Source: an uncultured Sandaracinaceae bacterium
Lineage (GTDB): Bacteria > Myxococcota_A > Polyangia > Polyangiales > Houyiibacteriaceae
Assembly (NCBI GenBank): GCA_964495565.1
Contig: CAZBWQ010000001.1
Location: 52,166-116,165 of the forward strand
Reading direction: 5' to 3'
Length of the DNA: 64,000 nucleotides
Shown piece by piece: positions 54,281 through 64,000 of this stretch. Each line of letters opens with the position of its first letter. The stretch's first letter is position 1. Position numbers and translations under genes: made by a program. The notes beneath the pieces are model-generated. The model was not told where the DNA came from and did no database searches. It was given only the letters and a program-made list of their open reading frames with translations.

Positions 54281-56166
54281 CAGGCGTACCCGATTACCTG
54301 CAGTCGCTGCGTGATTTCATCCAGGATTGCGGGATCGTCGATCGTCGCTGGCATTCGCCACGCGGTCCGGTCTGCAATCTTCTTCATCGTCCCCCGCAAG
54401 ATCTTGCCGGAGCGAGTCTTGGGAAGGCGTTGTACGACGATGGCCGTCTTGAACGACGCGACCGCCCCGATCTCGTTTCGGACCAGTTGGATGACTTCGG
54501 AGACGATGTCGTGATGAGGACGATCGACACCGGAGTTGAGAACCAAGAACCCGAGTGGGACTTCGCCCTTGAGGTCGTCTGCGACACCGATGACGGCACA
54601 CTCCGCAACGTCGGGATGCGAAGCGACCACTTCCTCCATCCCGCCGGTCGACAACCGGTGTCCGGCCACGTTGATGATGTCGTCGGTGCGCGACATGACG
54701 TACACGTAGCCATCCTCGTCGATGTATCCGGCGTCGGCGGTCTTGTAATAGCCCGGAAACTCTCGCAGATAGGAGCTCACGAAGCGTTCGTCGTCGTTCC
54801 AGAGAGTCGGCAGGCTTCCGGGCGGCAGGGGGAGCTTGATCACGAGCGCCCCGATCTTGCCGCGCTCGAGCTCATGACAGGCCTCGTCGACGACTCGTAC
54901 GTCCCATCCTGGGGCGGCGACGGTTGGCGATCCATGCTTGACCGGAAGCTGCTCGATTCCGAGGCAGTTGGCGCAGATCGCCCAGCCGGTCTCCGTCTGC
55001 CACCAGTGATCGATCACGGGCACTTGGAGCTTTTCTTCCGCCCATTTCAACGTGTCGGGATCGGAACGCTCGCCGGCTAGAAAGAGCGCGCGTAGCGAGC
55101 TGATGTCGTACTTGCCGATCAGGGCCCCATGAGGGTCTTCTTTCTTGATGGCACGAAACGCCGTGGGAGCGGTGAACAGGCAGTTGACGCCGTGGTCTGC
55201 GATGACTCGCCAGAAAGCGCCTGCATCGGGAGTGCCGACCGGCTTTCCCTCGTAGAGAATCGTGGTGTTCCCGTTCAGTAGGGGGCCGTAGACGATGTAG
55301 GAATGCCCGACGACCCACCCTACGTCGGAGGCCGCCCAATAGACGTCACCCGGCTCGACGCCGTACACGTTCTTCATCGTCCATCGGAGTGCGACGGCAT
55401 GTCCGCCATTGTCGCGCACCACCCCCTTGGGAATGCCGGTCGTGCCCGAGGTGTAGAGAATGTACAGAGGATCGGTCGCCATGACCGGAACGCAGTCGTG
55501 GGGCTTTGCCGCTGCCACCGCGTCCTGCCACGAGACGTCGCGACCTTCGGTGAGCTCGCATTCGCAGCTCTCACGTTGGCGAATGATGCACCGACTTGGC
55601 TTGTTCTTCGAAAGCTTGATCGCCTGATCGAGCAGCGGTTTGTATTCGATGACGCGCGTACCCTCGATTCCACACGAAGCCGACACGATGATTTTCGGTT
55701 GCGCGTCGTCGATGCGGGTGGCCAGCTCTTGGGGCGCGAATCCGCCGAAGACGACCGAGTGCACGGCGCCCAACCGGGCGCACGCCAGCATGGCGATCAC
55801 CGCTTCCGGAATCATCGGCATGTAGATCAGCACGCGATCGCCCTTGGACACACCTTGCGCGGCCAGAGCGCCGGCAAACAACGCCACCTCCTGCCGGAGC
55901 TGCCGATAGGTGTAGGTCCGCCGCGTGCGGGTCACGGCGCTGTCGTAGATGAGGGCTGCCTGATTGCCTCTCGTCTCGACGTGACGATCCACCGCATTGT
56001 AACAAGTGTTCAACTGGGCTCCGGGGAACCACCGGTAAAAAGGTGCATTCGAGTCGTCGAGCACTCGATCCCACGGGGTTATCCAGTCGATTCCTTCGGC
56101 TGCCTCGCCCCAGAAGCCCTCGGGGTCTTCCAGGGAACGGCGCCTCATTTCGAGAATTCCCGACAT
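54280..56166 (-). CDS. prpE: propionate--CoA ligase (propionyl-CoA synthetase)
   Basis: The true ATG is at 56166, with GGAGG 7 nt upstream (MSGILEMRRRSLEDPEGFWGEAA...). It is PrpE-like throughout (YTSGTTGIPKG, WWQTETGW, KTRSGKILR). The upstream part of ORF 54280..57015 is a shadow extension. Confidence 0.9.
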   Translation of the reverse strand: MSGILEMRRRSLEDPEGFWGEAAEGIDWITPWDRVLDDSNAPFYRWFPGAQLNTCYNAVDRHVETRGNQAALIYDSAVTRTRRTYTYRQLRQEVALFAGALAAQGVSKGDRVLIYMPMIPEAVIAMLACARLGAVHSVVFGGFAPQELATRIDDAQPKIIVSASCGIEGTRVIEYKPLLDQAIKLSKNKPSRCIIRQRESCECELTEGRDVSWQDAVAAAKPHDCVPVMATDPLYILYTSGTTGIPKGVVRDNGGHAVALRWTMKNVYGVEPGDVYWAASDVGWVVGHSYIVYGPLLNGNTTILYEGKPVGTPDAGAFWRVIADHGVNCLFTAPTAFRAIKKEDPHGALIGKYDISSLRALFLAGERSDPDTLKWAEEKLQVPVIDHWWQTETGWAICANCLGIEQLPVKHGSPTVAAPGWDVRVVDEACHELERGKIGALVIKLPLPPGSLPTLWNDDERFVSSYLREFPGYYKTADAGYIDEDGYVYVMSRTDDIINVAGHRLSTGGMEEVVASHPDVAECAVIGVADDLKGEVPLGFLVLNSGVDRPHHDIVSEVIQLVRNEIGAVASFKTAIVVQRLPKTRSGKILRGTMKKIADRTAWRMPATIDDPAILDEITQRLQVIGYA

Positions 56167-56271
56167 GTGATTCGCCTCCGGCGCGCGAGAATACAGTCCC
56201 ATCTCGCCGATTGCGAGCACGATCGAGCCCGTTGCATCCTGGCCCCGGATCTCCAAGGATCGGCCCTGACC

Positions 56272-58200
56272 ATGTCGTCCGACTCCATGATTTTGACCGT
56301 GGCGAGCCGTCTGGGGCGTCACCCTCCTTTCGACCGGCTCGAGCCGGAGCTTCTGCAGCAGGTCGCGCGGCGGGTTCGGATTCGGTACTTGGAGCGAGAC
56401 GAGGTCGTGTTCGAGCAGGGACAGCCTGCCAAGCCCGAGTTCTATGTCGTGGTCAAGGGGGAGGTCGCCGTCAGCCAGCAGGTCGACGGCGAGACCGTGC
56501 TGGTCGACGTGTGTGATGACGGTGACATCTTCGGGGTCCGGGCTCTGCTCGCCGAACGGCGGTACGCCGCGCGGACCCAGGCCAAAGACGACACCCTCCT
56601 GTACGTCCTTCCGAAGGAAACTCTGGACGAGCTGATACGCGACGAGCCCCGGGTCACGATGTTCTTCGCCGCCGGCTTCGCAGCAGACCTGCCCATGCGC
56701 TTGGACAAGAACCGCCTCGAGGCGGTCCGGGCCGCGAGGCTCCACGACCGTGCCAGCGATGCGGGCGACGACGTTCGGCGCGTGGACCCCGTGCGCGACG
56801 TGCTGACCTGCAGTGCGGAAACCAGCATTCGAGAGGCTGCCTCGCTCATGAGCGAGCGAAACGTGGGGTCCATTCTGATCGTGGACGACCAACGCCGCCC
56901 GGTCGGAATCGTGACGGATTCCGACCTTCGATCGAAGGTCGTCGGACAGGCACGCGACGTATCGGACGTCATCTCCGAAATCATGAGCTCTCCCGTGCTG
57001 ACGATCGACGACCAAACCACCGTCTCTTCACTCATCGCCACCGTGATGAAGAAGCACGTGCACCACTTCGCCGTCACCGAAGATGGGACGCCCGCGACTC
57101 CGATCGTCGGCATCGTTTCGGAGCACGACATTCTGAAGACCCAAGGCAGCCATCCGACCGTGATCTTGTCCGAGATCAACCGCGCCAAGACGAAAGAGCG
57201 GCTGCGCGCGTTGCGAGATCAGGCAGAAGATCTCCTAGGGCGCTACCTCGAGGAAGAGGTAGGCATGGGCTTTTTGTCCAACATGATCACCGAGATCAAC
57301 GACACGCTGATTCGACGCGCGATTCAGTTGGCACTTCGGGATCTGAAAGAGGAGGGCCACTCTCCACCTGTTCCTTTCTGTTGGCTCGCATTGGGAAGCG
57401 AAGGCCGCGAGGAGCAACTGCTTCGCACCGATCAAGACAACGCCATCGTGTACGCAGACCCGGATGGAGACGAGGAGTCGACACGGGAGATCTTTCTCGA
57501 TTTCGGAAAGCGCATCGTCGACACGCTCGTGGATGCGGGTTTTTCGCGCTGCCCAGGGGAAGTGATGGCGAGCAATCCCAAATGGAACCAGCCCATGAGC
57601 GCGTGGAAGCGATACTTTTCCGACTGGATTCGCGAGCCCGAGAAGATCGCGGTCATGCATACCAACATCTTCTTCGATCTGCGTCCCGTCGACGGAGACG
57701 ACTCACTCGCGAACGAGCTGAAGTCACACATCTTCGAGCGCATCAAGACGGACCGGGCTTTCCTCACCTTCTTCGCACAAAATGCGACGCAGAATCCGCC
57801 TCCGCTCAGCTTCTTTCGAAACATGATCGTCGAAAGCAGCGGCGAGCATCGAGACGCGTTCGACATCAAGGCGCGCGCCATGACCCCGCTCGCCGATGCA
57901 GCACGCGTATTGATTTACGACCTGGGCATCAACATCTACGGCAGCACGGCCGAGCGTTGGCAGCGAATCGGAGAAGTCGACGAGACGTTGACGCGTTTGT
58001 CCGGAGAAGCTGCCATGGCGTATGAAATATTGATGCGAATTCGGGCCATGGAGGGTCTCGCCAGAGGGAGCTCGGGCCGGTATGTGCACATCAAAGAGCT
58101 GAACAAGCTCGAACGGCAGACGCTTCGGAACACCTTCTCGGTGGTCAAAGACGTTCAGCTCATGCTGACCTCCAGATACCGAATCGATTTCTTGCGTTGA
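56272..58200 (+). CDS. cyclic-nucleotide-binding + CBS-pair + DUF294 nucleotidyltransferase + DUF294_C protein
   Basis: The cNMP domain includes FYVVVKGEVAV...GDIFGVRALL. Two CBS motifs are present. The pol-beta-type NTase motif is LALGSEGREEQLLRTDQDNAIVY. The ATG is at 56272, with an alternative at 56287. The 5' part of ORF 55303..58200 is antisense shadow. Confidence 0.85.
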   Translation: MSSDSMILTVASRLGRHPPFDRLEPELLQQVARRVRIRYLERDEVVFEQGQPAKPEFYVVVKGEVAVSQQVDGETVLVDVCDDGDIFGVRALLAERRYAARTQAKDDTLLYVLPKETLDELIRDEPRVTMFFAAGFAADLPMRLDKNRLEAVRAARLHDRASDAGDDVRRVDPVRDVLTCSAETSIREAASLMSERNVGSILIVDDQRRPVGIVTDSDLRSKVVGQARDVSDVISEIMSSPVLTIDDQTTVSSLIATVMKKHVHHFAVTEDGTPATPIVGIVSEHDILKTQGSHPTVILSEINRAKTKERLRALRDQAEDLLGRYLEEEVGMGFLSNMITEINDTLIRRAIQLALRDLKEEGHSPPVPFCWLALGSEGREEQLLRTDQDNAIVYADPDGDEESTREIFLDFGKRIVDTLVDAGFSRCPGEVMASNPKWNQPMSAWKRYFSDWIREPEKIAVMHTNIFFDLRPVDGDDSLANELKSHIFERIKTDRAFLTFFAQNATQNPPPLSFFRNMIVESSGEHRDAFDIKARAMTPLADAARVLIYDLGINIYGSTAERWQRIGEVDETLTRLSGEAAMAYEILMRIRAMEGLARGSSGRYVHIKELNKLERQTLRNTFSVVKDVQLMLTSRYRIDFLR

Positions 58201-58201
58201 G

Positions 58202-58924
58202 GTGCCTTTGATCCGCGAGCTCGTCAGGCGCTGGTTGCTTCCCGGTCGGTTGCCCAAGCACGCGCAAACGTGGCCCGAGCCGCTGCGAGAGTACATGTTG
58301 CAGCAGAAGCGGTTGTCCAAGGAGACGAAGCTCGAGGACGCGCGGTTCGTGGTCTTCGACACGGAGACCACCGGACTCGACCTTTCGGCGAATAGGCTCT
58401 TGTCGATCGCGGGAGTTGCCATCGTGGGTCTCGAAATCGAGCTCGACGATGCTTTCGAGGCCATGGTCCTTCAGAGCGACGTGGGAGGCGCCGAGGCTGC
58501 CGTCATTCACGGCCTGGTATCGAGTGACCTCGGCTCCGGCGTGCCGCAAGACCAAGCTGCTGCGGAGTTCTTGGCCTTCGTCGGGGACTCGGTGCTGGTC
58601 GCTCATCACGCAGCCTTCGACATTCGCATGCTGAAGAAGGCCATCGAGCCACATCGTGGCGCCCACGTTTGGAGCCCGAGCATCGACACCTCGCAGCTGG
58701 CGCGACGGGTCGAAGATGCCGCCATGTCTTCGGGACGAGCGCAAGGATCCGAGTCTCGTGAGAGCTACCAGCTGGATGTCCTCGTCGAGCTCTACGGCAT
58801 CGAAGCCCCGGAAAGACACACCGCCGCAGGTGATGCCTTGGCGACCGCCTTGCTCTTCCAGAAATTGATCAAGAAGGCACAACGCCGTGGAATTCAAACG
58901 CTCGGAGACTTGCTGTCGCGCTGA
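58202..58924 (+). CDS. DEDDh 3'-5' exonuclease (DnaQ/PolIII-epsilon-like)
   Basis: The GTG start lies 1 nt after the upstream stop. Exo I is FVVFDTETTGLD, Exo II is LVAHHAAFDIRML and Exo III is HTAAGDALATA. Confidence 0.85.
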   Translation: MPLIRELVRRWLLPGRLPKHAQTWPEPLREYMLQQKRLSKETKLEDARFVVFDTETTGLDLSANRLLSIAGVAIVGLEIELDDAFEAMVLQSDVGGAEAAVIHGLVSSDLGSGVPQDQAAAEFLAFVGDSVLVAHHAAFDIRMLKKAIEPHRGAHVWSPSIDTSQLARRVEDAAMSSGRAQGSESRESYQLDVLVELYGIEAPERHTAAGDALATALLFQKLIKKAQRRGIQTLGDLLSR

Positions 58925-58959
58925 GAGTGGTGTGCTATGAGCGGTCGAATCGAAGCTCG

Positions 58960-59763
58960 ATGCGAAAGAAGACGTTCACCCATCCGCCATGCGCTTTCGT
59001 GCGGTTTCTGAGCCTTTCGTTTGCGTTTGCCTCGTTGGTCGGTTGCCGATGCGGAGCGATGGGATCTTCGTCGGAGCTCACGGTCTTTGCGGCCTCCTCA
59101 CTCGCCGATGCGTTCCAAGCGCTCGAACGCGACTTCGAGTCCCAGCACCCGGATGACGAGGTGTCGCTTGCATTCGGTGGCAGCCAAGTCCTTCGGTTGC
59201 AGATCGAGCAAGGTGCGCCGGCTGACGTCTTTGCATCGGCCGACCAACGTCACATCGCTGCCTTGGTCGGAGCCGGCCTCGTCCGCGAGAGCGAAGTTTT
59301 CGCCCACAGTGAGCTCGCGCTGATCGTACCGACTGGCAACCCTGCCCGCATCGAGTCTTTCGCGGACCTCCCACGTGCGAATCGAGTGGTGCTCGGAGCG
59401 CCGGAAGTGCCGGTGGGGCGCTACTCGGCGGAGCTGCTTCGGCGCGCTGCACAATCTTACGGACCCGAGTTCCGCAACGAGGTGCGTGAACACGTGGTTT
59501 CCGAGGAGAGCAACGTGCGGTTGGTCCGGGCCAAGGTCGAGCTCGGCGAAGCCGATGCGGCGATCGTATACCGCCCGGACGTGACCCCTCGAAGCCAGAT
59601 TCGGATCATTCCCATTCCCGCGGTGCTGAACGTGCGCGTGGAATACCACATCGGCATCATCGCGGAATCCGATCGGCGAGAGCTGGCGCTGCGCTGGATC
59701 TCGTACCTACGATCCGAGCGAGCCCGCGAAATCTTGACCGAGCACGGGTTCATGGTGGATTGA
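58960..59763 (+). CDS. modA: molybdate ABC transporter substrate-binding lipoprotein
   Basis: The lipobox LVGC is present. ModA-like segments include [38 protein letters not shown] and DAAIVY. Confidence 0.85.
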
Positions 59764-60608
59764 TGCTGCGCCGACCCGGCACGAACGCGCTCGTTTCCGT
59801 GCTTGCGTGGAGCTCCGCGCTGGCTCTTCTCATGCTCATCGTCCTGCCGATCGCGGCGTTGGCGTTGAGTAGCTCGGCTTCGTCGCTTGCCGCGGGCGCG
59901 CTCCATCCGTTGTTTCTGCCGGCGCTTTCGTTGAGTGCGAGGACCACGATCGCCAGTCTCGGCATCGTGGTGATCAGCGGAACTCCGTTGGCATGGTGGC
60001 TAGCGACGGGTCCCTCGCGCTACACGCGGATCGTCGAGCTCCTGGTGGTCTTGCCCATCGTCGTCCCGCCTGCCGTCTTGGGCGTGGCCATGCTCCAGAC
60101 CTTCGGGCGCAGTGGTCTCTTGGGTCCGTCGCTCGACGCGCTCGGCGTCCAGATTCCATTCACGACCTCCGCCGTCGTTCTGGCGCAGGTAGTGGTGGCC
60201 GCGCCGTTTTACGTCGAATCGGCGGCGATCGCGTTTCGCCGCGTCGACGTGGACTTGATGCTCGTGGCACGGACGCTCGGTGCGACCCCGGCAGCCGCGT
60301 TTTTCAAGGTCGCCATCCCGGTCGCCGCATCGGGCCTGTTGGCCGGTGCCGCTCTCTCCTACGCTCGCGCCATCGGAGAGTTCGGGGCGACGCTGCTCTT
60401 TGCCGGGAATCTTCCTTCGACGACACAAACCATGCCGCTCGCCATCTACACTTCGCTCGAGTCGGACGTCCGCGCGGCACTTGCTCTGTCGATCGTGCTC
60501 GTCGGCATTGCCGTCGTGCTCTTGTTCATCTTGCGGGTAGGACCCCAAGCGCTTTCCTCCTGGACCCATCAACGACGCGAGTCCGCTCCGAAAGGAGATC
60601 GACCATGA
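59763..60608 (+). CDS. modB: molybdate ABC transporter permease
   Basis: A TGATG overlap joins it to modA. The EAA-type loop ([25 protein letters not shown]) and the segment [10 protein letters not shown] are present. Confidence 0.85.
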
Positions 60609-61360
60609 GTTGGAACGTTCGGCTGCGTGGAGGCGTAGGCGGTTTTCGACTCGATGCGGGCATCGACGGGACCGCGCAGCCCATCGTAATCATCGGTCCC
60701 AACGGGGCGGGAAAGACGACGCTCCTGCGCATGATCGCAGGCTCTCATCACCCGTCCGACGGGCAAATTCGGATCGACTCCAAGATCGTCTACGATTCGG
60801 AGCGCGGAATCGATCTCCCGCCGGAGGCGCGGGAGATCGGCTACGTACCGCAGGGGTTTGGTCTCTTTCCTCACTTACGCGTGGTGGACAACGTGGCCTT
60901 CGGTCTTTCGGTAGGCCCGAGACGAGAGCCTCGCAGGACACGACACGCGGCCGCGGTGCGGCTTCTCGCGGAGCTCGATTGCGCCGACCTAGCGGACCGC
61001 CTCCCGTCCGATCTCTCGGGCGGCGAAAAACAGCGTGTCGCACTCGCACGAGCGCTCATCGTCGAGCCGCGGCTCCTGCTGCTGGACGAGCCTCTGGCCA
61101 CGTTGGATCCCGGTTCACGCCGAAAAGTCCGTGCGTTTCTCGGCCATCACCTGAAGCAGCGGTCGGTGCCGGCCATCCTCGTGACTCACGACGCCCGAGA
61201 CGCCGAGGCGCTCGGCGCCGAGCTGTTCGTGCTCGAAGAAGGTCGAATCGTTCAGCGCGGGTCTGCGGCCGAGCTGCGTGCGCGTCCGGCCACGGCCTTC
61301 GTCGCCGAGTTTTTCGATGCTGCCCAGCGGTCCCCGGCTATTTCGGGGTTCGACCGCTGA
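60605..61360 (+). CDS. modC: ABC transporter ATP-binding protein (ModC-like, no TOBE domain)
   Basis: An ATGA overlap joins it to modB. Walker A is GPNGAGKTT, the signature is [15 protein letters not shown] and Walker B is LLLLDEP. The protein is only 251 aa. Confidence 0.8.
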
Positions 61361-61533: not shown

Positions 61534-62229
61534 TCATGCACGAGCCGTGCCACCGGGATTCGAGCGTCTTCTCCCCAGGGGCGCGGTCCAGGCGACGATG
61601 GGTACGAAACCCCCGTAGTAGAGCACGTTTGGCACGATGCGGAGGAGGAAGCCTTCGTCGGCTCGAGTGAACAGGATGACGGCATCGGCCGACGCCCAAA
61701 GTGCGTAGTAGAAGACCCCGAACAGCGTCACCAATCGAACCCAGCGAGCGGCCTGAACGCGCCGAGGCAGATACACGAAGAGCAACGTGCACAGAAGCAC
61801 GACGAACGACAGTTCATAGACCAGAAAAAGCACGCGCGACTCGTCCGTTCCGAGCATGAGCATCAGTGCTTGCGAGCCGATGGGCACCACCAATGTCCAA
61901 GCCAGCGCTCGTCCCAAACCTCGTACCGTGATCGACAAGCTGCCGTTGGGACGGGCGCTTTCGACGAAGAAGAAGTAGCGGAAGTCTCCCAGCAGAACGA
62001 ATATGAGGGGCACCCAAGGCGGAGCGGATTTCGTCGATTCGAGCCCGAGGATTTGATTCGCAGTGAGCCACGCGTCGAAGAGGGAGACGACGGTGAGCGC
62101 GACGCAGAACCACCGCACGTGAGGCGACAACCCCCGACGCGCGAGGGCGAGCAGAAGGCCCAGGACGGCGCTGGCCCACAAAAGGCCTGGATGCTGAAGG
62201 GGAGATGCGTAGAGATCGGCGAAGCTCAC
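61534..62229 (-). CDS. hypothetical polytopic membrane protein (231 aa)
   Basis: The GTG start overlaps the upstream stop (GTGA). It has about 6 hydrophobic segments, and I recognise no family. Confidence 0.5.
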
Positions 62230-63095
62230 TGTGCTCCGGGGTCCACTTTGTGGGACGCGATCGTTTCCAGATAAGCCATGATCGCGTCGATCACGTCTTC
62301 GCGGTTGGGAAGCGTCGGGTTCAGCGGAGGCATCTGAGGCCTCAGCCGCATGCTCGTCGGATCGTCAATCCACTTTCGGAGCCAGCCCGGCTTCAGGTAT
62401 TCGGTTGGATTTGCCGGGTAGTTGAGCTCCGGTCCGACCCGGCCCCCATGGCCGTTGACGGCATGGCACTGCGAGCAATGAATCACGAACGCTTCGAAGC
62501 CATCCCAGGTCTCTTGCGAGGCATCCGGGCTCGGCACCATCTCACCGAAACGAGAGCGAAAGGTGACGAGATCGATGCGTGTGACTTGGTACGGCCATCC
62601 ATAATCGTCCTCCGCTCGAATCTGGGGATCGTTCAGGTTGTCCCAGATGACGTAAAAGGGACCGAGCTCGACGGTCCGTTTCGCTCCATTGAGAATCTCC
62701 GTGATCGTGAAGTCGCCATGGTCGGCTCTCTCGACCGCGAGAAACGCCGAATGCTCCAATACGCGACGCACGGGGATGGTCGGCTCGTAGCCGTCGAGAC
62801 AACTGAACATGATCGCTTCGCGATCTCGCCAAGAACGCCCGTATGTAGCGTCGAGGACGCGTGGAAGAGGGACGGCACGGAAGGTCATCATGGTGCGCTG
62901 ATGGGGCTCGAAGACTTCGACGTCCCGTACGCCGAGCTGCTGGACCTGTGCCAAGCCATGCGACGCCACGAGCTGCGACCCGTCTCGAAAGACGAGCTCG
63001 GGGTCATCGTCGCTACGCTTGGGGCTGCAGCCGATCGCTGCGGTCACGGTCAGCGAGATCGCCACTGCGGCGACGCCGAAGAATACAGGCTTCAT
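62226..63095 (-). CDS. lipoprotein with C-terminal mono-haem cytochrome c domain
   Basis: The ATG at 63095 overlaps the folE stop (ATGA). The lipobox AAIGCS and the haem motif CSQCH are present. The N-terminal ~170 aa loosely resemble the Oxidored_molyb fold (FSCLDGYEPTIP...LGPFYVIW). Confidence 0.7.
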   Translation of the reverse strand: MKPVFFGVAAVAISLTVTAAIGCSPKRSDDDPELVFRDGSQLVASHGLAQVQQLGVRDVEVFEPHQRTMMTFRAVPLPRVLDATYGRSWRDREAIMFSCLDGYEPTIPVRRVLEHSAFLAVERADHGDFTITEILNGAKRTVELGPFYVIWDNLNDPQIRAEDDYGWPYQVTRIDLVTFRSRFGEMVPSPDASQETWDGFEAFVIHCSQCHAVNGHGGRVGPELNYPANPTEYLKPGWLRKWIDDPTSMRLRPQMPPLNPTLPNREDVIDAIMAYLETIASHKVDPGAQ

Positions 63096-63625
63096 CGAGA
63101 GGGAAGGGCGCCGTCCTCCGCGAGGCATCCCAACGCGATTTCGGTGCGAGTGACCGAGCCTGGGCTACGCGGACCCCGGCTCACCATGCAGAGGTGTTGA
63201 GCCTCGCTTCGTACGAGGACTCCCTTGGCGTGTCCGGACTCCATCATCTCGCGGGCGATGTCACGCACCAGGTCTTCTTGGATTTGGAAGCGACGTGAGT
63301 AGGCCTCGACCAAACGGGGCAGCTTCCCTAGACCGAGAATTCGGTCGCCGGGGACGTAGCAGATGCTGACGTGGCCGAAAAAAGGGAGAAAGTGATGCGC
63401 GCAAATCGAATAGAACTCGATGTCGTCCACGACGACGCGTCCCGGACGCTCGTCGTCCCGGAGAAAGCGTGTCGTTTTGAGGATCGTCGACGGGTCGATC
63501 GAATAACCACTCAAGAGCTCTTTGTAGCAACGCGCGATTCGGTCCTCTGCGTCCGGCGCGTCGAACCATCTCATCGCACGAGGATCTCCCGTGACGTGCG
63601 TACGCAACCAATCTGTGAGTTTCAT
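63092..63625 (-). CDS. folE: GTP cyclohydrolase I (type 1, FolE-like)
   Basis: The ATG is at 63625. [47 protein letters not shown] and AQHLCMVSRG align with the FolE Zn/catalytic motifs (CEHH..., QERL, HMCM). The first motif reads CAHH instead of CEHH. Confidence 0.8.
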   Translation of the reverse strand: MKLTDWLRTHVTGDPRAMRWFDAPDAEDRIARCYKELLSGYSIDPSTILKTTRFLRDDERPGRVVVDDIEFYSICAHHFLPFFGHVSICYVPGDRILGLGKLPRLVEAYSRRFQIQEDLVRDIAREMMESGHAKGVLVRSEAQHLCMVSRGPRSPGSVTRTEIALGCLAEDGALPSR

Positions 63626-64000
63626 GTGCTTCCCTTCAAAGATCGCTCGAGCCACGACCAGACTCCCATTCGATCCAACAACGGGTTCATCCAACCCGTG
63701 CTGATGCAGTAGGCCTGGTCGTGTGAAGCGCGATGGTGTCGTGCATGTCGATCGGGACTCAAGATGAGTCCCGTCCGCTGAAGCAATCGAACCGAGCGCG
63801 GTGCCACGGCGGAATGCGCCCATTTGTGAGCTTGATTGGCCATTGCTCCAAACAGGGCCATCGTCCAGAGGCATGCGATTCCCATCGCGGAAAGCCACGA
63901 TCCCGCGCGGGGCTGAAACCAAACGAGCCCGAGCAGAGCAACGAGGGGAAGAATCGAAGACTCTCCATTGGTTTCGATCCAGTCGTGCTCGACGATCGCG
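63622..64000 (-). CDS. CarF/PEDS1 (TMEM189, Kua-domain) family membrane desaturase, C-terminal part (gene continues beyond the right edge)
   Basis: NQAHKWAH ... LILSPDRHARHH ... YCISTGWMNPLLDRMGVWSWLERSL matches the TMEM189/CarF His-box region (HKWSH, HHxxHH, FCITTGWLN), from memory. The frame stays open from 63885 to 64000 on hand translation. Its stop overlaps the folE ATG (ATGA). Confidence 0.7.
   Translation of the reverse strand, partial: AIVEHDWIETNGESSILPLVALLGLVWFQPRAGSWLSAMGIACLWTMALFGAMANQAHKWAHSAVAPRSVRLLQRTGLILSPDRHARHHRASHDQAYCISTGWMNPLLDRMGVWSWLERSLKGST

Follow-up and report, generated by a model that had tools for sequence, protein, structure and literature searches.

The window analysed here, a stretch of 64,000 nucleotides of contig CAZBWQ010000001.1 from an uncultured Sandaracinaceae bacterium, ends in a minus-strand operon of four genes encoding a lipid desaturase (gene 1), a FolE-like GTP cyclohydrolase I paralogue (gene 2), a periplasmic lipoprotein (gene 3) and a seven-transmembrane (7TM) protein (gene 4; Table 1). 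We tentatively read this operon as a PruR-like pterin sensing or redox device that has been rewired to control membrane-lipid desaturation rather than cyclic di-GMP (c-di-GMP), a reading that we favour but hold with considerable reserve. Our survey of related loci confirmed that the operon is real, is more than a chance arrangement and is widely conserved in Myxococcota (dozens of species). The pterin link is best explained by a pterin-binding domain in gene 3 rather than by electron supply to the desaturase; because gene 3 carries this PruR-like domain, the FolE gene can be accounted for without a pterin-dependent desaturase.

Gene 3 provides the central evidence. On the best-supported interpretation of its structural model, the N-terminal 160 residues form a PruR-type fold, predicted to bind pterin, that is joined to a monohaem cytochrome c. 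The protein begins with a signal peptide and a lipobox cysteine (Cys23), which the family alignment also places in the closest relatives, and the same alignment revealed a strongly conserved domain of about 160 residues followed by CxxCH and an invariant Met. The haem motif C207-S-Q-C210-H211 and Met255 are invariant and typical of a class-I monohaem cytochrome c, which Pfam assigns to residues 199-279. The AlphaFold2 (AF2) model reached a mean predicted local distance difference test score (pLDDT) of 82.6 overall and above 90 in the N-terminal domain.

Foldseek comparison of the N-terminal domain against the PDB returned PruR as all of the top seven matches (E 1e-5 to 1.5e-4), with target-normalised template modelling (TM) scores of 0.69-0.81 for five entries (7kou/7kos, 7kp2, 7rkb and 7kom). 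The matched proteins come from Agrobacterium (7kou/7kos), Vibrio and Klebsiella (solved with neopterin), and 7rkb holds neopterin. The next match, Thermus thermophilus sulfite oxidase, followed at E 6e-3 and a TM score of 0.24. In sequence comparisons, a profile of the domain also placed PruR first among PDB sequences, albeit weakly (E 0.26), and the molybdopterin-oxidoreductase family PF00174 gave weak matches in 9 of 14 members of the gene 3 family.

In PruR, the molybdenum-binding Cys is replaced by a Pro-Trp motif, and the pterin is sandwiched by Tyr104 and Trp160 and hydrogen-bonded by Asn102 (PMC11194511). Gene 3 likewise has no Cys at the molybdenum-ligand position, the PruR TTPW segment aligning with FEP(Y/H) in the HMMER alignment, and PruR N102-D-Y104 aligns with D101-G-Y103, in which Tyr103 is invariant. 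An invariant GWPYQ motif lies near the end of the domain, and one of its residues is probably the second pterin-stacking aromatic. Two residues before D101, the putative pterin contact, Cys99 (62799..62801) is invariant in the FolE-linked clade (FxCxDGY) and is replaced by Ala in FolE-less fused relatives.

Public annotations of the gene 3 family read 'cytochrome c' only. The word 'cytochrome' is absent from the main texts of the PruR paper (PMC11194511) and of a 2026 review (PMC13259868), and a literature search combining PruR with cytochrome c found no paper, its results being swamped by 'pruritus' matches. The names that the original prediction gave to the gene products are right, except that 'cytochrome-c lipoprotein' applies to no more than the final third of gene 3.

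The product of gene 4 is modelled as a seven-helix bundle (AF2, pLDDT 90.9) of a family that matches nothing in Pfam or NCBIfam and finds no consistent Pfam match even at E 10. An exhaustive profile search among 1.84 billion proteins recovered 455 representatives. The topology is predicted to be N-out/C-in by the positive-inside rule, and the invariant polar residues (D52, R132, E139, D182, R197 and N201, with H13 nearly so) lie mostly in the periplasmic half; helix 3 carries D82-x-R84. The loops are short, and the protein contains no GGDEF, EAL or kinase domain.

Foldseek detected weak similarity of gene 4 to microbial rhodopsins (E 7e-3, TM 0.5-0.6) and weaker similarity to G-protein-coupled receptors (GPCRs). 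A rhodopsin was rejected, since the absence of a conserved Lys anywhere in the family indicates that this is not a retinal protein, and a haem b protein was rejected for want of conserved His pairs. Two motifs, D-x-R-Y in helix 3 (GDFRY) and, in helix 7, P-N-x-L-Y-Y, look superficially like DRY and NPxxY of class A GPCRs, which is probably coincidence.

Four natural fusions of gene 4 to gene 3 (P0463, P0472, P0524 and P0480; about 515-590 aa) provide strong evidence that the two products act as one complex. In these proteins the 7TM domain is followed by one extra hydrophobic segment, the PruR-like domain and the cytochrome c.

A search anchored on the gene 4 family yielded 80 loci, one per GTDB species, most of them in Myxococcota-type metagenome-assembled genomes (MAGs) and a few labelled Spirochaetales, Gammaproteobacteria or 'bacterium'. 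Gene order was counted in the 52 species-level loci whose flanks extend for 3 kb or more on each side, and genes were detected by tblastn and hidden Markov model (HMM) matches on raw DNA. FolE, the cytochrome and the 7TM protein occur together in 28 of the 52 loci, 21 with the desaturase upstream and 7 without it. Another 16 loci combine the cytochrome gene with an unknown gene of about 340 aa, here called c5, and lack FolE (desaturase present in 2 of the 16), while eight have the 7TM gene without a nearby cytochrome gene. FolE and c5 are mutually exclusive, never co-occurring (28 versus 16 loci).

This conserved gene order, which recurs in full in 21 of 52 loci, bears out the functional link that the original prediction drew from a desaturase of the CarF family to a FolE paralogue and a c-type cytochrome. 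The proposed translational coupling is likewise real and conserved: of 32 loci, 22 have an overlap between the desaturase stop and the FolE start, 4 nt long in 21 of them, and the gap from cytochrome stop to 7TM start is at most 11 nt in 42 of 45. Across the conserved loci, FolE identity ranges from 87% down to about 58%. The placing of the desaturase at the centre of the system did not hold, because genes 3 and 4 lie side by side in 44 of 52 loci and make up one protein in the four cases above, and because seven FolE-type loci lack a desaturase altogether. Genes 3 and 4 are the conserved core and invariant pair; the desaturase is the most dispensable part.

In the FolE-less clade, the gene for the c5 protein (about 330-350 aa, e.g. 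L069:9568-10611, L091:5896-6885 and L168:2958-3983) goes together with those for the 7TM protein and the PruR-cytochrome c, and FolE and c5 look like alternatives to each other. Its motif, GxGxS...FSQGLSxNA, is SIS-like; a search with the c5 family returned no Pfam family, one weak SIS match (E 0.12) and insignificant PDB matches to lumazine synthase. Five Polyangiaceae loci (L051, L052, L057, L058 and L064) have the 7TM gene without a cytochrome neighbour, preceded by a gene with a LarN (lactate racemase N-terminal) domain, and in all of them except L051 a Ser/Thr protein kinase gene comes after the 7TM gene. In locus L003 (Myxococcales MAG GCA_020633335.1), a cytochrome P450 gene (L003:12120-13484) overlaps the 7TM stop, in the desaturase's role as coupled oxygenase, and a metallophosphoesterase gene lies upstream of FolE.

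Gene 2 is a member of a distinct FolE subfamily with its zinc and catalytic residues intact, and is predicted from these residues to be enzymatically active. It matches PF01227 (GTP_cyclohydroI) at E 8.4e-47 and 159.4 bits and falls just below every NCBIfam FolE cut-off (159.4 versus 162, 153.9 versus 174 and 134.4 versus 181.6). Aligned with the E. coli FolE reference, whose sequence was verified as exact by look-up, it keeps the zinc ligands and the residues for catalysis and substrate (C75/H78/C146, H77, H144, K101, R104, Q116/E117 and R150), and differs at E111 (A76) and S135 (G100). In mature E. coli numbering we take the zinc ligands to be Cys110, His113 and Cys181 and the catalytic histidines to be His112 and His179.

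The replacement of CEHH by CAHH (residues 75-78) that the original prediction reported is present in the window copy, but it is a subfamily signature rather than a peculiarity of that copy: CAHH occurs in 120 of the 120 best homologues, and GLGK for the canonical GLSK in 119 of 120. The best PDB match, 9ujf_A (E 4.8e-60), also has CAHH; its sequence is about 95% identical to genes of Streptomyces sp. CB02056 and Kitasatospora, and its depositors named it 'GTP cyclohydrolase 1'. A literature search found no paper for PDB 9ujf, and an exact-sequence look-up of the window FolE gave no match.

Genes of the CAHH/GLGK subfamily do not stand in folate operons. Their neighbours are the PruR-cytochrome c and 7TM genes, NUDIX and major facilitator superfamily (MFS) genes, or a Metallophos-family metallophosphoesterase, which adjoins the gene in L003 and L214. 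In the actinomycete loci a NUDIX hydrolase follows in 24 and an MFS transporter in 17, and these loci look like a module for making and exporting pterin, not for folate synthesis. The repeated pairing with phosphohydrolases would suit release, and perhaps export, of a pterin made in triphosphorylated form, and from these neighbourhoods the subfamily probably serves non-folate pterin production. The actinomycete loci (L174-L217) are mostly from Streptomyces, with Kitasatospora, Actinosynnema and related genera, and their NUDIX protein is of the zinc-ribbon type; L195 also has an AurF-like di-iron oxygenase immediately upstream.

Gene 1 is truncated by the window end, and its 5′ part was taken from orthologues (e.g. 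L001:9312-10004, 230 aa) because the contigs with an identical 7TM protein (L007-L010) end at the same point. The 125-residue fragment matches PF10520 (Lipid_desat) at E 9.5e-30 and 104.3 bits against a gathering cut-off of 26.4, and full-length relatives reach 172.8 bits; against the FA_hydroxylase model the fragment scores 21 bits, below the cut-off of 31. By its motifs, gene 1 is a di-iron lipid desaturase of the CarF/PEDS1/FAD4 family with PEDS1-type histidines, and putatively forms a vinyl ether.

The motifs VEHDW, HKWAH, HARHH and YCISTGW lie in the window. Six of the nine essential histidines are there, aligned with H130, H186, H190, H214, H217 and H218 of human PEDS1 (reference verified as exact, A5PLL7), and the full-length orthologues (230-240 aa) also carry H95, D99, F117, H120 and H121; the family histidines expected by the original prediction are present. 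Eight family-wide histidines are invariant in the alignment with human PEDS1, five of them in the window (HKWAH, HARHH) and three in full-length orthologues (VVHW, FREHH). The ninth (VEHDW, aligned with human TRHDF) is kept in nearly all members of the clade, except in L033 (Gly) and L047 (Arg). Plant FAD4 has Arg in place of this residue (CarF H113, human H130), which Alphaproteobacteria lack and which separates the plasmalogen-forming enzymes of animals, myxobacteria and Leptospira from plant FAD4 and the alphaproteobacterial homologues (PMC9131029).

Gene 1 is not a CarF orthologue. The family placement of the original prediction stands (PF10520), but in a neighbour-joining tree of 116 sequences, which is distance-based and carries no support values, the FolE-linked desaturases form their own clade, apart from the group of Myxococcaceae, Archangiaceae, Leptospira interrogans and human sequences. 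Their identity to human PEDS1 is 35-40%, versus 46% for Myxococcus xanthus CarF, and the L001 orthologue scores 148.8 bits, below the cut-off of 500 for the NCBIfam equivalog of plasmanylethanolamine desaturase CarF (NF045946). None of about 58 CarF/Leptospira-type loci has FolE, cytochrome or 7TM neighbours, and a literature search found no paper linking CarF and FolE. A second, unrelated PF10520 group is also linked to the 7TM gene (as desaturase-7TM-cytochrome-c5, as c5-desaturase-7TM and as divergent pairs), which indicates that the desaturase-7TM association arose more than once, in at least two clades; in L155, L163 and L173 the two are linked without a cytochrome.

In the reading that we favour, gene 2 would convert GTP to dihydroneopterin triphosphate, from which unlinked phosphatases and reductases would produce a reduced pterin. 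The pterin would reach the periplasm, possibly via the 7TM protein, and would lodge in the cleft of the PruR-like domain, stacking against Tyr103 and one aromatic residue of GWPYQ, where electron exchange would take place with the haem beside it. As tetrahydropterins are ready reductants of ferricytochrome c, electrons would probably flow from pterin to haem, likely from a tetrahydropterin to the ferric form. The complex may read the periplasmic pterin redox state or oxidant level, and the 7TM partner, with its polar periplasm-facing pocket and short cytoplasmic tail, may relay that state into the membrane. The likeliest client would be the co-translated CarF-family desaturase, whose di-iron site would face the cytoplasm and require O2 and a reductant.

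Several observations weigh against this reading. All statements on pterin binding, on GTP cyclohydrolase activity, on the substrate of the desaturase and on signalling are inferences from sequence, predicted structure and gene context. The similarity to PruR is structural, its sequence signals being weak (E 0.26); PruR Asn102 is Asp in gene 3 and Pro-Trp is Pro-Tyr/His, and the FolE-less clade shows variation at the position of the second stacking aromatic (HPRP[YWF]). The 7TM protein has no output domain. Furthermore, the desaturase is absent from the 7 FolE-type loci and from most FolE-less loci, and one species has a P450 in its coupled position; with so many loci lacking a desaturase, desaturation cannot be the sole output.

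A dedicated electron supply for the desaturase is the alternative that survives best, although we consider it unlikely. Here FolE-derived reduced pterin would reduce the di-iron centre directly, as in alkylglycerol monooxygenase (AGMO), and recycling or disposal of the pterin would fall to the periplasmic pterin-cytochrome c/7TM unit. AGMO, itself a di-iron membrane enzyme, works with tetrahydrobiopterin (PMC9471318), and by this analogy reduced pterin is a possible reductant for the desaturase. Desaturase and FolE are translationally coupled (the 22 of 32 loci above), the P450 of L003 is another electron-requiring oxygenase in the coupled position, and some loci have short-chain dehydrogenase/reductase (SDR) genes next to the operon, one of which weakly resembles a dihydropteridine reductase model. 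Our literature search turned up no paper that names an electron donor or regulator in bacteria for the PEDS1 desaturase family. However, FolE, cytochrome and 7TM genes occur without the desaturase in 7 loci, the desaturase and 7TM genes occur without FolE elsewhere, and true CarF/PEDS1-clade genes (Myxococcaceae, Leptospira) lack these neighbours. This alternative also leaves the periplasmic parts unexplained, and the PruR-like domain already accounts for the pterin. The supply of electrons from the cytochrome c, one of the two sources that the original prediction considered, is itself unlikely because the two lie on opposite sides of the membrane: the cytochrome is periplasmic and the CarF histidines are cytoplasmic (PMC9131029).

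We regard as improbable a module for pterin secretion or extracellular signalling, in which the 7TM protein would be the exporter, the PruR-cytochrome c would capture or oxidise the pterin and the desaturase would merely be co-expressed. No pterin efflux system is known (PMC13259868), the actinomycete members of the FolE subfamily are followed by NUDIX and MFS transporter genes, and the desaturase is dispensable in many loci, all of which would suit such a module. The 7TM fold, however, is nearer to receptors and rhodopsins than to known transporters, and the desaturase has become linked to the 7TM gene repeatedly and independently, including without the cytochrome (L155, L163 and L173).

More doubtful still is a transmembrane pterin redox loop that would replace cytochrome b5 for a PEDS1-family desaturase, with reduced pterin as the cytoplasmic donor, the 7TM protein as pterin transporter and the PruR-cytochrome c coupling the pool to the respiratory chain or to oxidants. 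If such a loop were true, lipid desaturation would follow oxygen and redox state, and the 7TM protein would be the first known pterin transporter.

A plasmalogen-based oxidative-stress device appears very unlikely. The desaturase would make a vinyl-ether lipid, the lipid-anchored haem c would cleave it peroxidatively, the 7TM protein would sense the product and pterin would serve as mediator or photosensitiser. The desaturase does keep the ninth His typical of PEDS1/CarF, cytochrome c has plasmalogenase activity, as in mitochondria (PMC9471318), and plasmalogen signals photooxidative stress in M. xanthus (PMC9131029). These parallels are analogy only; the part of the window scanned for ether-lipid synthesis genes (32.6-57 kb) has none, and neither the PruR-like domain nor the FolE-less and desaturase-less loci are explained.

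Finally, we rejected as hardly credible a small molybdenum enzyme of the sulfite dehydrogenase type (sulfite oxidase fold, SUOX, plus cytochrome c) supplied by modABC: the SUOX-like fold, the weak PF00174 matches and the convergent modABC genes immediately downstream (58927..61360) point that way, but gene 3 lacks the molybdenum-ligand Cys, its domain of about 160 aa is truncated like PruR (TM 0.7-0.8, against 0.24 to sulfite oxidase), modABC adjoins the operon in close relatives only, and synthesis of the molybdenum cofactor (Moco) does not use FolE.

The coordinates of the operon are given in Table 1. The four minus-strand genes are joined by stop-start overlaps exactly where the original prediction placed them. 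Genes 1 and 2 share ATGA at 63625..63622 (desaturase stop TGA 63624-63622, FolE ATG 63625-63623), genes 2 and 3 share ATGA at 63095..63092 (FolE stop 63094-63092, lipoprotein ATG from 63095), and genes 3 and 4 share GTGA at 62229..62226 (lipoprotein stop 62228-62226, membrane-protein GTG from 62229). The GTG start of gene 4 agrees with the N-termini of its homologues, and its stop is at 61536-61534.

Table 1. Coordinates of the operon, its domains and the adjoining DUF1328 gene in the window.
Feature	Coordinates	Strand	Basis or remarks
Gene 1, desaturase, 3′ part (125 codons + stop)	63622..64000	-	PF10520; 5′ part beyond window end
Gene 2, FolE-like GTP cyclohydrolase I paralogue, 177 aa	63092..63625	-	PF01227
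Gene 3, periplasmic lipoprotein, 289 aa	62226..63095	-	Signal peptide, PruR-like domain, cytochrome c
Gene 3, PruR-like domain, residues ~30-192	62520..63008	-	Foldseek
Gene 3, cytochrome c domain	62229..62510	-	Pfam; CSQCH codons 62477..62463
Gene 4, seven-transmembrane protein, 231 aa, uncharacterised family	61534..62229	-	AF2 model
DUF1328 small membrane protein, 57 aa	61338..61511	-	PF07043, E 9.1e-14

The DUF1328 gene begins 22 nt downstream of gene 4 on the same strand and may be co-transcribed with the operon. It lies outside the conserved core: apart from the window's own contigs, only the close relatives L012 and L014 have it downstream. Convergent to the operon are the genes of a molybdate ATP-binding cassette (ABC) transporter, modA-modB-modC (58927..61360, plus strand). 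This adjacency is common to close relatives only (L001, L002 and L007) and is not seen in L003, L005 and others; although suggestive given the SUOX-like fold of gene 3, the neighbourhood is probably unrelated. Upstream of the operon, the closest relatives have a gene for a DUF481 outer-membrane protein.

Neither the region of the window nor any of six related loci matched an Rfam family (e.g. a tetrahydrofolate or Moco riboswitch), and a scan for promoters and terminators gave no signal above chance. The scan of 32.6-57 kb of the window revealed acetyl-CoA synthetases, a symporter and a sigma-54 two-component system, and no pterin genes. At about 55300..58924 (plus strand), a cNMP-binding/CBS/DUF294 nucleotidyltransferase-like gene is directly followed by a DEDD (RNase T/epsilon-like) exonuclease gene from 58202, a pair that is syntenic in L001. 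On the opposite strand, a 911-codon open reading frame (ORF) with an acetyl-CoA-synthetase match (54283..57015) overlaps the long plus-strand ORF, and the true starts are doubtful.

Among known systems, the operon most resembles the pterin signalling pairs of PruR with DcpA or DTB in Proteobacteria (e.g. Agrobacterium tumefaciens PruR). Both have a periplasmic truncated SUOX fold without the molybdenum Cys and with the conserved Tyr that stacks on the pterin in PruR, a gene adjoining that of the membrane partner and, here putatively, a FolE-derived pterin. In contrast to those pairs, the gene 3 domain carries a lipid anchor and has a c-type cytochrome fused to it, and its partner is a stand-alone 7TM protein instead of a two-helix diguanylate cyclase/phosphodiesterase or histidine kinase with a WX7E periplasmic domain. 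A FolE paralogue dedicated to the system is also part of the operon, usually together with a lipid desaturase, and the host belongs to Myxococcota.

Periplasmic SUOX-fold proteins with a polytopic membrane or c-type cytochrome partner are familiar from MsrPQ (YedYZ) and SorAB. The present operon shares this arrangement with them, but has no Moco site, no conserved haem b His pairs in the 7TM protein and no assignable reaction. Gene 2 shares with E. coli FolE and 9ujf the T-fold (PF01227), the zinc ligands and the catalytic His, Gln and Glu, whereas its subfamily has Ala for Glu111 and Gly for Ser135 of the E. coli enzyme. The desaturase has in common with CarF/PEDS1 (TMEM189) the PF10520 family and the nine essential His, Asp and Phe, including the ninth His, but belongs to a separate clade, and the CarF-clade genes lack FolE, cytochrome and 7TM neighbours. 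AGMO offers the parallel of a membrane di-iron lipid oxygenase tied to a pterin derived from GTP cyclohydrolase (PMC9471318); it belongs to the FA_hydroxylase family, however, and pterin use by PF10520 enzymes is hypothetical.

Collectively, the soluble parts come from known families, and their combination was not found in the literature searched. New are the PruR-cytochrome c fusion, the unannotated 7TM partner, the CAHH-type FolE, the coupling to a PEDS1-family desaturase and the occurrence in Myxococcota; the CAHH/GLGK subfamily already has a solved structure (9ujf). PruR-type pterin sensing has been known only in Proteobacteria, where it regulates c-di-GMP enzymes or kinases, and this locus extends the fold to Myxococcota. 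The position of the haem beside the putative pterin site suggests real redox chemistry, and the 7TM family, previously without annotation, is a candidate membrane partner or transporter. By linking a pterin system with a FolE subfamily of its own and with a desaturase of the plasmalogen type, the locus bears on pterin export, on pterin redox state in signalling and on the supply or control of bacterial PEDS1-family enzymes.

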